This document shows, piece after piece, positions 17,618 through 22,408 of a stretch of DNA of 26,592 bases (position 1 is its first letter; every line of letters begins with the position of its first letter). The DNA comes from a virus (taxonomy: Duplodnaviria; Heunggongvirae; Uroviricota; Caudoviricetes). The notes beneath the pieces are model-generated. The model saw nothing but the letters and a program-made list of their open reading frames with translations, had not been told where the DNA came from and ran no database searches. The DNA lies in the IMG/VR virus record IMGVR_UViG_2645727539_000008, positions 1 to 26,592 of that record, one strand, 5' to 3'. Both the position numbers and the translations under genes were made by a program.

Positions 17618-18007
17618 TCAGGCGGCTGCACCCGCCGTTTTCTCGTACTTACTGATAGTGATCTCGATCTTCCCTCCCGGGATAACCGGTCCCCACTCAA
17701 CCAGCATTCTTTTCACCTGACTGTCGTCTTCCCACACACCCGCGTGGGTCAGGGCGTCAAACAGCGCCTTGTTATAGTTGTCCAGATCGCGGATCCGGTT
17801 ATCCGGAGGAAACAACACGATCTCCACTGAAGCAGGTGCCGACGTTGGTTTCGGCAGGCGACGTAACTGCTCAACTATTGCTGCGCACGCCGCGCTCTGG
17901 AATTTGCGCCCCGCTGCGCTTATCAGACTCTTACCAGCAAACGCCCCTTTGTTGGGGTGTCGCCAGTACGTGTTCACGCTGGGCGGGAAAGGCAAGATCA
18001 GCTTCAT
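17618..18007 (-). CDS. rusA: Holliday junction resolvase RusA
   Basis: 129 aa, N-terminus MKLILPFPPSVNTYWR and conserved acidic residues typical of RusA; in nin region. Confidence 0.9.
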   Translation of the reverse strand: MKLILPFPPSVNTYWRHPNKGAFAGKSLISAAGRKFQSAACAAIVEQLRRLPKPTSAPASVEIVLFPPDNRIRDLDNYNKALFDALTHAGVWEDDSQVKRMLVEWGPVIPGGKIEITISKYEKTAGAAA

Positions 18008-18330
18008 ACTTTCAGGCCCCTCTCATGTAACCAGTGGGCTGCACGCAGCCTGCCGTTTTCCTCACCGGCAAGCAGTGCGCGGATAATCCCGACCGCCTCG
18101 CTGTCGTCGTCCTTCACCGCGGTATGAAGCGTTATCCCCCGGGCCACGCCACGCTTTATCGTGATGACGCCTTTTTTCTCCAGTGCACGAAGATGCTCTA
18201 CCGCTGCATTCACTGAACGGTATCCCAGCATGGTTGCCACCTCCTGATTGGTTGGCGGAAAGCCACGCTCTTTCTGATAAGAAATCAGCATATCCAGCAC
18301 CTGCTGCTGGCATTGAGTTAACGTCGTCAT
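18004..18330 (-). CDS. LexA N-terminal DNA-binding domain homolog lacking the S24 peptidase domain
   Basis: 108 aa; residues 1-70 align by eye with LexA residues 1-70 (QQ.V.D.I...G.PPT..E.A..LG.RS.NAA.EHL.AL..KGVI.I..G..RGI.L); no Ala-Gly cleavage site or Ser/Lys dyad. Confidence 0.8.
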   Translation of the reverse strand: MTTLTQCQQQVLDMLISYQKERGFPPTNQEVATMLGYRSVNAAVEHLRALEKKGVITIKRGVARGITLHTAVKDDDSEAVGIIRALLAGEENGRLRAAHWLHERGLKV

Positions 18331-18980
18331 GCCGCCATCTCCCTGACCAGTTTTTCCGCCTGCTGGCGAACCTGCGCCAGAAACGCCTCACCACATACCT
18401 CAAGTTCATCGCGCCCGATGTAGCTGATTGCCGGTCCCTTCCAGGTCTTATCGAAAACAGCAATAGCACCAGCGAAGAAAGCGCCTGTCGGCACCTGCTT
18501 CTCATCCTTCGGGATAAACCAGGCAGGCAGTTCAAAACCAATACGCCCGCGAATAAAAGCAATATGGTCTGCATCTTCCGGCCACCACACTTCGCTGGTG
18601 GCAGCTTTGATCAGGAAAACATAGCGCCCGCCTTTATCACGCATAGCACTGGCATGTTTCATGATGTAACGCATGCCGGTGATGTATTGCCCCTCATGCT
18701 GACTGGCGCGGCTGTACGGGGGATTACCAAAGGCAGCACCTTTAAGCTCCGCAAGACGTTCTGACCAGTCATGCGCCAGCGCGTTGTCTTCCGCAGTGTA
18801 ATAAGCGGCACATTTGGCGTTATCACCATCAGTAAACAGATCCAGAACAAACGGGCCAAACAGGGTGTTAATTCCCCAGAAAATGTTGTCCGGCGTGCGC
18901 CACTGATCGCCCACTTCCTTCAGTTCATGGGCTGGTTTGTTCCGCAGCTCCACCAGCGCCTGGCAATATTTATTACTCAT
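18327..18980 (-). CDS. Phage DNA N6-adenine methyltransferase (Dam-like)
   Basis: Contains NPPY motif (FGNPPYS); start taken at the ATG in a TAATG overlap with the upstream gene stop; ORF track extends to 19013. Confidence 0.8.
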   Translation of the reverse strand: MSNKYCQALVELRNKPAHELKEVGDQWRTPDNIFWGINTLFGPFVLDLFTDGDNAKCAAYYTAEDNALAHDWSERLAELKGAAFGNPPYSRASQHEGQYITGMRYIMKHASAMRDKGGRYVFLIKAATSEVWWPEDADHIAFIRGRIGFELPAWFIPKDEKQVPTGAFFAGAIAVFDKTWKGPAISYIGRDELEVCGEAFLAQVRQQAEKLVREMAA

Positions 18981-19474
18981 TAAGCCCCCACGTAATTCCC
19001 TGACAGATACCACTCTTCACCCGATGCAGCGCGCTTGCTGCTTTTCCGTAAGCACCGCTCACGATGCGCCAGAAAATTGTTTCGTTCTGGCTGGGAGTGG
19101 CTTTCACGGAATGCCGCCATCCACACCGTTGCAGCTCGACGGAATAAGCCCCTGGACTCCAGTTCTTCAGCCTGGCGGGTCAGGCACAAAATCACCCGGG
19201 GGTCGTTAGTGCCGACATAGAAATTGCGCACAGGTCTGGTTTCACGAACAGATTGTGGTTCCGGCTCCTGCGCTCTCTCAGTCAGGCGCGGGAAATGTCT
19301 GCGTGTATCTCCTTCACAACGGTGAGCCACACGCCCACTCTGACGTAACTTGCTTGCTGACTGCAGAACGCGCTGCCGTGAGTAACCAGCAAAAGCATCC
19401 GCAATGTCTCCGGAAGTACACCCAGGATGGGCTTCAATGAATTTCTGAACGTCATTTAACAGACTCATGATCAC
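18980..19474 (-). CDS. Hypothetical regulator, possible PerC-like C-terminal motif
   Basis: 164 aa; segment LESRGLFRRAATVWMAAF resembles the PerC/Pch family motif as recalled from memory; occupies the slot where a helicase loader is normally found. Confidence 0.4.
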   Translation of the reverse strand: MIMSLLNDVQKFIEAHPGCTSGDIADAFAGYSRQRVLQSASKLRQSGRVAHRCEGDTRRHFPRLTERAQEPEPQSVRETRPVRNFYVGTNDPRVILCLTRQAEELESRGLFRRAATVWMAAFRESHSQPERNNFLAHRERCLRKSSKRAASGEEWYLSGNYVGA

Positions 19475-20463
19475 CCCCTGAATCCTGCCGGGATCTGGCT
19501 GTAGTCCACGTTGTCGTAACTGGATTTGAAGTACGGGTCTTCGCGTTTTTCGGTGTACGTGCTGACGGACGGCGATAAGCGCAGGGAAAGCTCATCCCAT
19601 TTTTCCCGCAGCTTCGACGGGCTGAGCACGTTACGGCACCAGAACGGATCGCGACTGACGCGGCTGTACATCTCGCAGATTTGTTTATGATTACGACCAT
19701 CCTGCACACACATCAGGCGAATTTCGTTTGCCCAGGCTGTCCAGTTCGGTTCTTTGGGACGAACCACCTCGCCGTCACATTCGGCGGCCTGCTCGTACAG
19801 GGCGATGATTTTTTTCCAGAGCCACTGTGCGCAGGTCAAATCATCCTGCGTTCCCCACTGGCGCTTTTTAGGGCTGAATACAACCGCATCAGGATGGCGA
19901 GTTAAAAAATCCTGTTCAGCCACCTGCGTGTCCGGTTGCGAAGCGTCCGGACGAGAAGAGGTTTTATTCTCTGTAGTAATCTCTGTTGTATTCTCTGTAA
20001 GATCATTGGGCCATTTTGACCCGATGACAGCGTGTCGTTTTGAACCAATGGATCGTGTCATTTTGCGCCCATCCATCAGGTCACTTTGACCCGATGGAGA
20101 AGTGCATTTTGACCTGATGGATTCGTTCACTTTGACCTCTTCTAAAAGCTCACTTTCATAGTTGATCGTGTAGAAATTGGTCATGTCACGCTTCGATTTA
20201 TTGAGTTGCTCGCGACGCAAAACCCCAAGTGATTTCAGGCTTGCAAATGTGCGTTTCAGAGTGGACTCTGACCAGAACGGAAACTGCTCCAGCCACTGTT
20301 CTGTCGTGTTATAAACCCAGCGAATTCCGCCATGCTCAGTGCCTGAATTCGTTTCATTCAGCCAGTAATGAAGCTGCTGCAACACAATTGCCTCATTCAG
20401 ACCAATACGGCATGCAAGATCACGATTTATCACAATGGGCTGGGATGTCATTAACAGGCTCAT
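19471..20463 (-). CDS. Replication initiator (lambda O-like replisome organiser)
   Basis: 330 aa; first replication-module gene after cro/cII-like genes; contains in-gene iterons producing repeated SIRSK/SIGSK/VIGSK peptides in a linker; SD AGAGGT before ATG. Confidence 0.8.
   Translation of the reverse strand: MSLLMTSQPIVINRDLACRIGLNEAIVLQQLHYWLNETNSGTEHGGIRWVYNTTEQWLEQFPFWSESTLKRTFASLKSLGVLRREQLNKSKRDMTNFYTINYESELLEEVKVNESIRSKCTSPSGQSDLMDGRKMTRSIGSKRHAVIGSKWPNDLTENTTEITTENKTSSRPDASQPDTQVAEQDFLTRHPDAVVFSPKKRQWGTQDDLTCAQWLWKKIIALYEQAAECDGEVVRPKEPNWTAWANEIRLMCVQDGRNHKQICEMYSRVSRDPFWCRNVLSPSKLREKWDELSLRLSPSVSTYTEKREDPYFKSSYDNVDYSQIPAGFRG
19966..20139. repeat. Putative origin of replication: six ~23-bp iterons plus three 12-bp repeats inside the initiator gene
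   Basis: Direct repeats of consensus GTCAYTTTGACCCGATGGA starting near 20009, 20034, 20057, 20080, 20102 and 20125; TCTCTGT repeated at 19968, 19980 and 19992. Confidence 0.7.
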
Positions 20464-20472
20464 GACCGACCT

Positions 20473-20811
20473 CTATTTCCCTGAATTTACGACGAAACTG
20501 TTCGAGCGGGCTGAAGCACTCATGCTCATAGCCTTCACGGAGGTAGATAACCCGTTGTGTTTCCGGTTCCCAACGAATGACTCTGACGGGCACTCCGTAG
20601 TGATCTTTGAACCAGCGGTTAACTTGTCGCAAAGGACTGTCTCCTTCTGCCGGTTGAAATCACCCACAGCCCACTCAGCAAAGCTGTGGGTTACAATTTC
20701 CCTGTCACCTGGTACATTTACTGCATAGCAATACTCCACCTTCGCTTTTCCACCCGGTACAGGAAGTGCAATCAGTTGCGAGCGACGGTAGTGTGTTGTT
20801 AAACTGTTCAT
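20473..20811 (-). CDS. Hypothetical protein (between CII-like gene and replication initiator)
   Basis: 112-aa ORF coupled by ATGA overlap to the upstream gene; C-terminal half is Ser-rich and overlaps a more protein-like 70-aa ORF (20420..20632) in another frame. Confidence 0.4.
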
Positions 20812-21365
20812 GCGTTAGTTTCTCCACAACCAGAAGCAATCGACGCCACGACGCCCGGAGCTGCACACTCGCGGGCGTCATTACTTTCTGAAATGCAAAA
20901 AATTTTGTAGACAAGTGCTGCATGCTCCTGCAGCTTCGAAATTGAGAGATACAGCTCGTCGTTGATTGCTGTCTTCTCATGCGGTTCCACCACACCGTCT
21001 TCGATTGCCGAACGAATCTGTTTGGAATAACTGCCAATCTGTTCAATGACTTCCAGCAGGCGCTGGTTAATATCGGCGTTGTCCACATCCTCGACGTCAG
21101 GAAGAGACACAAAGACGCCATTTGCCGACTGCGCCACAGCGTCAGCAATGAAGTGAGTTCCACCAGCACGTTGCAAAATCATTGCCCATCCCAGCGGGAA
21201 AATCTGATCGCCATCGGCACGAAGGCGGTTAAATAATGCGTTCTCTGTTACATCCAGCCAGTCAGCTGCTTCAGCGTAACCACCCGGCAACTTTGCGATA
21301 GTTTTTCTGACAGCTTTCACGTACCACTCAGGCTGTTTTTCTACTTTCCAGTGATGCTTACCCAC
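20808..21365 (-). CDS. Putative CII-like early regulatory protein
   Basis: 185 aa, first gene after cro in the rightward operon, overlaps the cro stop; HTH-like N-terminal segment; assignment by position. Confidence 0.5.
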
Positions 21366-21618
21366 GGCTTACCTCCTGTTCCTGTGGTTTAAACCCATTC
21401 TGGTTTTGGCTAGATTGAAAACGTGCCGGATAAAGAATCTGCATTTCGCTGATTTCACCCTTAAAAAAATTGGCCAGACGCTCTGCAAGATCGATAGATG
21501 GAATTTGTTCCAGTCTCTCAATACGACTCAGCGTTGCTGGATTAACCTGAACGCCCGCAGCAACATGCTGCAAAGTAAACCCGTGCGCCTTACGCACATT
21601 TCGTAATGGTGATTGCAT
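21358..21618 (-). CDS. Cro-like repressor (XRE-family HTH)
   Basis: 86 aa with HTH GFTLQHVAAGVQVNPATLSRIER; divergent from cI across the operator region; SD GGAGG. Confidence 0.8.
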   Translation of the reverse strand: MQSPLRNVRKAHGFTLQHVAAGVQVNPATLSRIERLEQIPSIDLAERLANFFKGEISEMQILYPARFQSSQNQNGFKPQEQEVSRG

Positions 21619-21715: not shown

Positions 21716-22408
21716 ATGAACATAGGAAACCGAGTCAGACAACTTCGCCAGGCGAAGAACATGAAAATCGCCGATCTCGCTGAAGCAATAGGAGTGGATG
21801 CGGCGAATATCTCGCGCCTGGAAACAGGTAAGCAGAAACAATTCACTGAACAAGCCCTGAGTAATATTGCCAGGAGCTTAGGTGTTGATATTGCTGATCT
21901 CTTTACCTCAGACGTCAAAAGTAATACTGTATGTAAAAACAGTATTAGTGAGGATGTTGCGCAGGTGAAGGATGTATTCCGTATTGAAATGCTGGATGTC
22001 AGTGCCAGTGCGGGAAATGGCCTTATCCAGGGCGGTGATGTCATTGATGTGATTCATGCCATTGAATACAGAACTGATAATGCTGTATCGATGTTTGGCG
22101 GACGACCAGCCAATCACATTAAAGTTATCAACGTTCGTGGGGACAGTATGTGTCCAACCATTGAGCCAGGAGATCTCATCTTCGTTGATGTCAGTATCAA
22201 TCAGTTTGATGGAGATGGTATCTATGTATTTGGTTTTGATGATAAAATTTATGTCAAACGACTGCAAATGATACCTGACAAACTACTGGTGATATCTGAT
22301 AACCAGATTTACCGTGAATGGGGAATTACCAGCGAAAATGAACACCGGTTTATGGTCTTTGGAAAGGTCTTAATCAGCCAGTCACAAACCCTTAAACGAC
22401 ACAATTAA
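21716..22408 (+). CDS. CI-type prophage repressor (N-terminal HTH, C-terminal S24 LexA-like autopeptidase)
   Basis: 230 aa; HTH KIADLAEAIGVDAANISRLETG; Ala-Gly site in SASAGNG; Ser nucleophile in RGDSMCPT and Lys in VKRL. Confidence 0.9.
   Translation: MNIGNRVRQLRQAKNMKIADLAEAIGVDAANISRLETGKQKQFTEQALSNIARSLGVDIADLFTSDVKSNTVCKNSISEDVAQVKDVFRIEMLDVSASAGNGLIQGGDVIDVIHAIEYRTDNAVSMFGGRPANHIKVINVRGDSMCPTIEPGDLIFVDVSINQFDGDGIYVFGFDDKIYVKRLQMIPDKLLVISDNQIYREWGITSENEHRFMVFGKVLISQSQTLKRHN

Follow-up and report, generated by a model that had tools for sequence, protein, structure and literature searches.

The stretch of DNA analysed here (hereafter the window) comprises 26,592 nucleotides (nt) from a virus of the class Caudoviricetes, positions 1 to 26,592 of IMG/VR virus record IMGVR_UViG_2645727539_000008. 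On its minus strand lies a gene for a protein of 330 amino acids (aa) that matches PHROG 391, "replication initiation O-like", over its whole length (E = 3.5e-101; residues 1-330 against all 298 profile positions). Its existing labels are "hypothetical protein" (PGAP) and "Primosomal protein I" (RAST). Inside this gene lie six direct repeats, here called iterons, and a block of three 12-bp repeats (Table 1). By analogy with characterised origins, we put at roughly 80% the probability that the segment 19965-20142 is the replication origin of a lambdoid prophage, located within the linker-coding part of its own initiator gene.

Table 1 Features of the initiator gene and its internal repeats. Positions are those of the window; pLDDT is the predicted local distance difference test score of the AlphaFold2 (AF2) model; in the topology, H is helix and b is strand.
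Feature	Position	Strand	Remarks
O-like replication initiator gene, 330 aa	19471..20463	-	PHROG 391 match
N-terminal winged-helix-like domain, aa 1-118	20110..20463	-	AF2 pLDDT 86-97 (aa 10-118), topology H-H-b-b-H-H-b-b-H
Segment encoding predicted disordered linker, aa 119-173	19945..20109	-	AF2 pLDDT < 50; nearly coincides with iterons and 12-mers
C-terminal domain, aa 180-296, helical	19576..19926	-	AF2 pLDDT 74-87, moderately confident; homologous to lambda O C-domain
C-terminal tail SQIPAGFRG	19474..19500	-	8/9 identical to E. coli DnaT C-terminus SQIPPGFRG
Iteron array, six units, period 23-24 bp	20004..20142	-	gene-orientation consensus TCCATCrGGTCAAArTGAC
Iteron unit 1 (gene order)	20120..20142	-	degenerate, GAGGTCAAAGTGAAC
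Iteron unit 2 (gene order)	20097..20119	-	TCCATCAGGTCAAAATGCA, read SIRSKC
Iteron unit 3 (gene order)	20074..20096	-	TCCATCGGGTCAAAGTGACCTGATGGA, best palindrome, 11/12 arm match, read PSGQSD
Iteron unit 4 (gene order)	20051..20073	-	GGGCGCAAAATGACACGA, read DGRKMT
Iteron unit 5 (gene order)	20028..20050	-	TCCATTGGTTCAAAACGAC, read SIGSKR
Iteron unit 6 (gene order)	20004..20026	-	GTCATCGGGTCAAAATGGCCCAATGA, 9/12 arm match, read VIGSKW; aligned with lambda iteron 4
Three 12-bp repeats	19965..20000		TATTCTCTGTAG / TAATCTCTGTTG / TATTCTCTGTAA
Three 12-bp repeats, core CAGAGAnTA	19965..20000	-	TACAGAGAAT / ACAACAGAGATT / ACTACAGAGAAT, encoded peptide TENTTEITTENK
Module junction	19957..19973	.	gene-downstream side 97% identical to SfII and SfIV; upstream side unrelated

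A sequence-only reading of the window had described six direct repeats of about 23 bp preceded by three 12-bp repeats, all within a coding sequence, and every part of this description held. Repeat finding and direct reading gave six in-register units, which start on the plus strand at 20004, 20028, 20051, 20074, 20097 and 20120 (spacing 24, 23, 23, 23 and 23). The three 12-bp repeats stand before the iterons on the plus strand and after them in gene direction, and all of these repeats fall inside the open reading frame (ORF) at 19471-20463. The 19-mer consensus given in that reading, GTCAYTTTGACCYGATGGA, had five matches at three or fewer mismatches, all within the array and none elsewhere in the 26.6-kb window; the expectation from 100 dinucleotide shuffles of the complete window is 0.01. 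The match at 20080-20098 is exact, and another is the palindromic reverse reading of the same unit. Degeneracy is greater in the units at 20051 and 20120, where only the core CAYTTTG is kept. The iteron unit shows the dyad symmetry GGTCA-AAA-TGACC around a central A-tract. Arm symmetry ranges from 5 to 11 of 12 positions, being best in gene-order units 3 and 6 and 5-8/12 in the other four.

The 12-mer core CAGAGAnTA has no further copy on either strand of the window. The 12-mer block has a GC content of 0.325 and a purine-rich coding strand; the tract after the iterons is 70% A+T, against 50% for the gene, with an AT skew of -0.56 on the plus strand. The block is presumed to be an unwinding or single-strand-recognition element. 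A motif scan over 19300-20700 found neither DnaA boxes (TTWTNCACA) nor the IHF consensus, and GATC, with two sites in the ori region (20001 and 20051), is no more frequent there than in the window on average. No sigma-70-like promoter was found over the same interval either, which leaves the idea of a promoter within the A-rich block of the gene unsupported.

Sequence comparisons indicate that the repeats are constrained as DNA and not as protein. This conclusion draws on reading in three frames, low entropy at third codon positions, near-invariant cores and a predicted lack of structure in the encoded peptide. Since 23 is not divisible by three, gene-order units 2 to 6 use all three frames (Table 1). 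Among 23 enterobacterial representatives with pairwise identities below 97%, entropy at third positions averaged 0.33 bits in codons 109-167, against 0.88 in the N-terminal domain (N-domain) and 1.37 in the C-terminal domain (C-domain) (Mann-Whitney p = 4e-11 and 5e-22, respectively). Amino-acid entropy was 0.59 in the repeat-coded part and 0.32 in the N-domain. In the same sample the iteron cores TCCATCnGGTCAAAATGA and the 12-mers were near-invariant and the spacers variable, and the sole variable base of ACAGAGAnTAC was the "n", a second codon position. The gene of HannyBb, which is 72% identical to the window gene in nucleotides and 71% in amino acids overall, repeats this pattern: third-position identity is 0.75-0.95 at aa 101-180 and 0.25-0.55 in most of the rest, and the residues of aa 101-180 are not better conserved. 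In the 12-mer block, HannyBb has one difference and the two other aligned relatives have none.

These comparisons also bear on the possibility of a low-complexity or tandem-repeat linker that is selected for its peptide, in which case repetition of the DNA would be incidental. The translation does contain the peptides SIRSK, SIGSK and VIGSK pointed out in the sequence-only reading (as ESIRSKC, RSIGSKR and AVIGSKW), and the 12-mers lie in frame, giving TENT, TEIT and TENK. However, successive units are read in different frames, and the xIxSK motif comes from gene-order units 2, 5 and 6 only. Third positions are more conserved than amino acids, the only variable base of the 12-mer is at a second codon position, and in distant relatives the CAGAGAnTA copies fall in frames 0, 1 and 2. 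The segment in the window initiator is predicted to be disordered. On this frame and codon-position evidence we reject selection for a repeated peptide, which we consider scarcely credible.

A 23-bp repeat within an ORF is a built-in frameshift hazard, and damaged arrays were seen in related prophages. One (L060, about 1820-1860) has lost exactly one 23-bp unit, with a frameshift and an ORF of 360 nt. A second (L059, about 1900) lacks one A from the A-tract of unit 4 and has an ORF of 405 nt. A third (L047, about 2005) carries a 12-nt in-frame deletion directly after the 12-mers.

In an AlphaFold2 model of the initiator that drew on 124 homologues, residues 119-173 have pLDDT below 50 and separate an N-domain predicted with high confidence from a C-domain of moderate confidence. 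The "inter-domain linker" of the earlier reading is thus borne out at the level of structure prediction. The top Foldseek match of the N-domain model, a weak one, was 4pql_B (E = 8.1e-3; TM-score 0.60 on the target), which together with 4pt7 and 5kbj represents the iteron-binding N-terminal domain of RepA_N initiators, a family whose winged-helix fold is that of the pSK41 and pTZ2162 Rep N-terminal domains. The remaining matches were winged helix-turn-helix (wHTH) regulators, generic ones scoring similarly. The whole protein had no sequence match in Pfam (E <= 0.01), NCBIfam or PDB, and a profile of 15 N-domain members found nothing significant in these three collections. By analogy with other initiators, the N-domain is presumed to be the iteron-binding domain. 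The C-domain region aligns with lambda O by BLASTP (34% identity over 148 aa, aa 147-294; E = 7e-28). Over its full length the initiator is 98.7% identical to that of Escherichia virus mEp460_4F5, a viable phage with one difference in the aligned ori region, outside the repeats. The annotation of mEp460_4F5 starts this gene 12 nt further in (981 nt), so that the true start codon is uncertain; the DUF4222 ORF (20420-20632, minus strand) shares 44 nt with the 5' end of the initiator ORF.

The closest known arrangement is that of lambda O and its ori, as the sequence-only reading had proposed. This likeness is supported by the PHROG 391 match, the position after cI, cro and cII, the lambda-O-like C-domain, and the register of the last iteron and the A+T-rich block. 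In lambda and Shiga toxin (Stx) phages, the ori consists of iterons and an A+T-rich tract in the middle of O (PMC7466680). In both lambda and the window, the origin or putative origin is placed mid-gene, between an N-terminal DNA-binding domain and a C-terminal domain. According to the lambda record, four ori iterons occupy gene nt 349-433 of 900 (aa 117-145 of 299) with a spacing of 20-24 bp, and the tract is 74% A+T. Here, six iterons occupy gene nt 325-460 of 993 (aa 109-154 of 330) with a spacing of 23-24 bp, and the tract is 70% A+T. Shared by lambda, the Stx phages 933W and P27 and the window are four to six dyad-symmetric iterons with a central A-tract, followed by a purine-rich, A+T-rich tract. 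The BLASTP alignment begins at the last iteron of both proteins and places the TENTTEITTENK block opposite the A+T-rich tract of lambda (TKDTITKEKRKD). Further similarities are the homologous C-domains, the position after cII in the pR operon, and the exchange of N-domain and iterons as a unit.

There are also clear differences from lambda. The iteron sequence is a different one, as had been noted earlier: TCCATCGGGTCAAAATGAC here and ATCCCTCAAAACGAGGGA in lambda, although the lambda iteron TCCCTCAAAACGAGGGA likewise has dyad symmetry around an A-tract. Lambda O matches PF04492 (Phage_rep_O) at E = 5.7e-36, whereas the window N-domain has no match in the same library even at E <= 1. The window has six units, as in Stx phages, instead of four, and its A-rich tract is made of three copies of a sequence-conserved 12-mer. 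Finally, no P gene follows the window initiator, and the protein ends in a DnaT-like tail.

A similar tripartite logic is found among the RepA_N plasmid initiators of Gram-positive bacteria, in Rep of pSK41, in which a winged-helix N-domain binds Rep boxes located centrally in its own gene (PMC5703833). The ori-encoded central part of pSK41 Rep is only a linker and its C-terminal domain is host-specific, and plasmid pPR9 has a chimeric initiator in which the N-domain was swapped together with the ori (PMC5703833). However, RepA_N (PF06970) was matched by none of the 15 N-domains at E <= 1, the one system is a plasmid and the other a phage, and the C-domains are unrelated, that of pSK41 binding DnaG. 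Among the replisome organisers of Gram-positive phages, that of SPP1 (G38P) has oriL within its gene, gene 38, and the ori of 80alpha was inferred to lie in ORF20 (PMC5499656). The 80alpha record (L117 1675-1900) carries a putative rep_origin in gp20 with GGAAAAACCGTTAA(C/T)GGTAAA repeats, then A+T-rich ACTAATAATAAT-type repeats. ORF20 of 80alpha was considered as a member of the N-domain family and rejected: its architecture is the same, but it has no detectable sequence similarity to the window protein.

The initiator is assembled from exchangeable parts. In a megablast search against phages, SfII, SfIV and many others shared only the C-terminal half with the window gene, the match ending at query position 503 (window 19973), and in a pairwise alignment with SfII homology begins directly after the third 12-mer. 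The initiators of SfII and SfV have HTH_36-type N-domains and their own, different repeat arrays at the equivalent position. Given the position of the SfII/SfIV junction and these alternative N-domains and arrays, the N-domain forms a single specificity module with the iterons and 12-mers, and the C-domain makes up a second, exchangeable one, in agreement with the classical view of lambdoid phages and with pSK41/pPR9 (PMC5703833). The SfII array (L004 1999-2146) consists of 15-bp GATTTTGACGGGTCA units, whose core GTCAAAAT resembles that of the window, and the SfV array (L005 2400-2554) of GTGAAT...CTGCAC units plus three copies of TGACTGGTTCT.

One alternative is that the repeats are a cis element bound by the initiator or another protein and serve something other than initiation, such as autoregulation, copy control of the titration or handcuffing type, exclusion of related phages, or a boundary for recombination of modules. 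The mosaic junction directly beside the array speaks in its favour. Constraint at the DNA level shows that the DNA matters, not what it is for, and plasmid iterons are generally known to serve copy control as well. However, position, spacing, number, dyad symmetry and the A-rich block are as in the origins of lambda and Stx phages, pSK41 and SPP1 (PMC7466680, PMC5703833, PMC5499656), and the window holds no second iteron cluster to act as origin. Such roles are also compatible with origin function, and the two do not exclude each other. We regard a purely non-initiation role as unlikely.

Relatives of the N-domain (43-63% identity) occur across many phyla, in phages and in genomes; a narrower range of 43-52% was also obtained for its conservation across phyla. 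In the relatives examined, the N-domain is followed by repeats, three to seven in number and 22-24 bp apart, that have a palindromic core like GGTCAAAATGACC, and then by one to four copies of CAGAGAnTAC. This layout was found in genomic loci of Bacillus, Taibaiella, Janthinobacterium, Geobacteraceae, Caulobacteraceae, Vagococcus and Paenisporosarcina, and in Staphylococcus phage 96 and Lactobacillus phage mv4. Pseudomonas phage AF has two copies of CAGAGAnTAC, and its iterons are not obvious. Conservation of this 12-mer spans enterobacterial, staphylococcal, lactobacillal and Bacteroidota phages. Exact copies of CAGAGAnTA numbered 23 in 13 of 16 distant loci, 377-539 nt from the start of the N-domain, where 0.2 were expected. 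The remaining 105 kb of these 16 loci held four copies on both strands (Poisson p about 6e-39); these come from two loci with long inserts, where they lie farther along the gene itself. The distant copies are spaced by 11 or 12 nt. Phages 96 and mv4 have the same N-domain family and the same iteron and 12-mer layout as the window. The Gram-positive phages with an internal origin compared here, 80alpha included, encode a DnaC-like loader or a DnaB-like helicase beside the initiator, which the window prophage does not. Downstream partners vary by host: phage 96 has a loader and a DnaB-like helicase, and phage AF a primase/helicase. Within E. coli, the segment coding for N-domain and iterons (window 19950-20463) was found in 1849 of 5426 complete genomes, in up to four copies per genome. 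About 1600 of the copies are 80-90% identical to it (HannyBb type), and among the matches listed the annotation was "hypothetical protein".

The C-terminus of the initiator resembles that of the host primosomal protein DnaT (Table 1). In the HannyBb homologue, the tail QRCVNHISEPDTEIPPGFRG is identical to the DnaT tail SEPDSQIPPGFRG at 14 of 20 positions (BLASTP, E = 9e-8). The likeness to DnaT is confined to this tail: BLASTP found only the last 9 (window) or 20 (HannyBb) residues, and neither the N-domain nor the three-helix bundle of DnaT had a match in the initiator. "Primosomal protein I" is accordingly a misleading label, and an identity as DnaT was rejected; the RAST label is probably explained by the similarity of the tails. 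Initiators of SfII and SfV type carry the same tail despite their unrelated N-domains, and in SfV the middle region is different as well. Outside the window, the observation on this tail covers L002 1404-1463 and L113 1979-2005. Enterobacterial variants include IPPGFRG, VPAGFRS and IPEGFRG, and a few relatives end in ...GGHWNSPEAWENTL. In DnaT itself, the last 20 residues (160-179) are flexible (PMC5778457). A protein known from Oceanospirillales and Cellvibrionales, DopC, combines an O-like N-terminus with the DnaT C-terminal motif and, unlike the window initiator, is reported to be without iterons (PMC5509034).

From these features a mechanism can be outlined. Dimers of the initiator would use their winged-helix N-domain to bind the six dyad-symmetric iterons, as suggested by the architecture, by co-inheritance, and by the parallels with lambda O and with Rep of pSK41. 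With its phased central A-tracts and a spacing of roughly two helical turns, the DNA might wrap into an O-some-like complex, and the resulting stress would open the adjacent block of three CAGAGAnTAC copies. This block is probably read specifically, perhaps as single-stranded DNA. Because no P-type loader gene is present, host DnaB-DnaC could be recruited directly by the lambda-O-like C-domain together with the DnaT-like tail, which is the weakest step. A bolder proposal is that CAGAGAnTAC is a sequence-specific origin element, read on the opened strand by the winged-helix initiator family or by a conserved host factor as a counterpart of the DnaA-trio idea, and that the enterobacterial branch does without a loader by plugging its DnaT tail into the replication-restart and helicase-loading machinery of the host. 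We offer this proposal tentatively and think it rather doubtful as a whole.

Several points weigh against an origin at this position or against parts of the mechanism. No helicase, loader or P gene was found among the neighbours annotated in the window, which makes the loading step speculative. The N-domain lacks a significant sequence match in Pfam, NCBIfam and PDB, and its fold match is weak (E = 8e-3). In distant relatives the A+T content of the 12-mer block does not exceed that of the remaining gene, so a simple A+T-rich unwinding element is insufficient; the 12-mer is therefore conserved by sequence and not by composition. No experiment on this replicon type was found in the literature searched, so that binding and origin activity rest on analogy. 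The prophage copy in the window may be silent, and the 191-nt repeat region has marked folding potential as a single strand (-64.7 kcal/mol; z = -6.3 against shuffles).

The last of these points would also fit a structure in mRNA (hairpins) or a cruciform that controls translation or stability of the initiator mRNA. Gene-order units 3 and 6 keep their hairpin potential in 12 relatives, and one pair changes from A-U to G-C in 4 of the 12. However, the RNAalifold covariation term in these relatives (+0.27) gives no support, most pairs being invariant and uninformative. Four of the six units have poor arm symmetry, and their cores are equally conserved. The best conserved part, the 12-mers, stays unpaired in the predicted fold, and no Rfam family was found in the whole window at gathering thresholds. 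The regular direct periodicity of 23 bp and the central A-tract are what would be expected for binding of protein to duplex DNA and not for folding of RNA. We therefore hold a regulatory RNA or cruciform to be highly improbable as the explanation of the repeats.

As to a silent copy, the segment could be an origin by descent that persists as a relic in a defective prophage and no longer fires. Prophages commonly decay (PMC2669165), and the related copies L060 and L059 are both broken at the array with a truncated initiator. In the window, by contrast, the full 330-aa ORF is preserved, none of the six units or three 12-mers is missing, and the near-identity to the gene of phage mEp460_4F5 includes an ori region whose sole difference lies outside the repeats. 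It is very unlikely that we are dealing with such a relic. Taken as a functional origin, the locus is best filed as a new, uncharacterised initiator with an internal origin and a lambda-O-type C-domain, in an arrangement that is itself textbook. The literature gave no description of this origin, of the 12-mer or of a phage DnaT-like tail; our coverage omitted most subscription journals, and an earlier description is possible.

The genes around the initiator follow the order of a lambdoid early region: a cI-like repressor (21716-22408, plus strand), cro (21358-21618, minus strand), a CII-like activator (20808-21365), the DUF4222 ORF and the initiator. Downstream of the initiator come a PerC-like/wHTH protein, a Dam methylase, a LexA-like protein and RusA. 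The position of P in lambda is taken by a gene (18980-19474, minus strand) for a 164-aa protein that overlaps the initiator stop by 4 nt. Its C-terminal part is PerC-like (PF06069, E = 7.4e-8) and its N-terminal part has a weak MarR-like match. This gene is kept in SfII, SfV and Stx phages and is absent from HannyBb and mEp460_ev081, whose initiators likewise have no adjacent P or loader partner. The same operon encodes the phage Dam methylase (18327-19013, minus strand) and the LexA-like protein (18004-18330, minus strand), which has 108 aa and only the N-terminal DNA-binding part.

To a specialist the origin itself is ordinary, and the parts of note are the 12-mer and the DnaT-tailed initiator without a loader. 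Recognising this replicon type would fill an annotation gap, as the type occurs in 1849 of 5426 complete E. coli genomes and the matches listed there call the gene "hypothetical protein". It would also supply a concrete origin for coverage analysis of prophage induction, and the module of N-domain and iterons would predict replication specificity and incompatibility groups of lambdoid prophages. What goes beyond the textbook is a 12-mer whose sequence is conserved in several phyla and a DnaT-like tail on an initiator that has no loader. Both raise the question of how such an origin opens and by what route, with no P protein, it obtains the host helicase.

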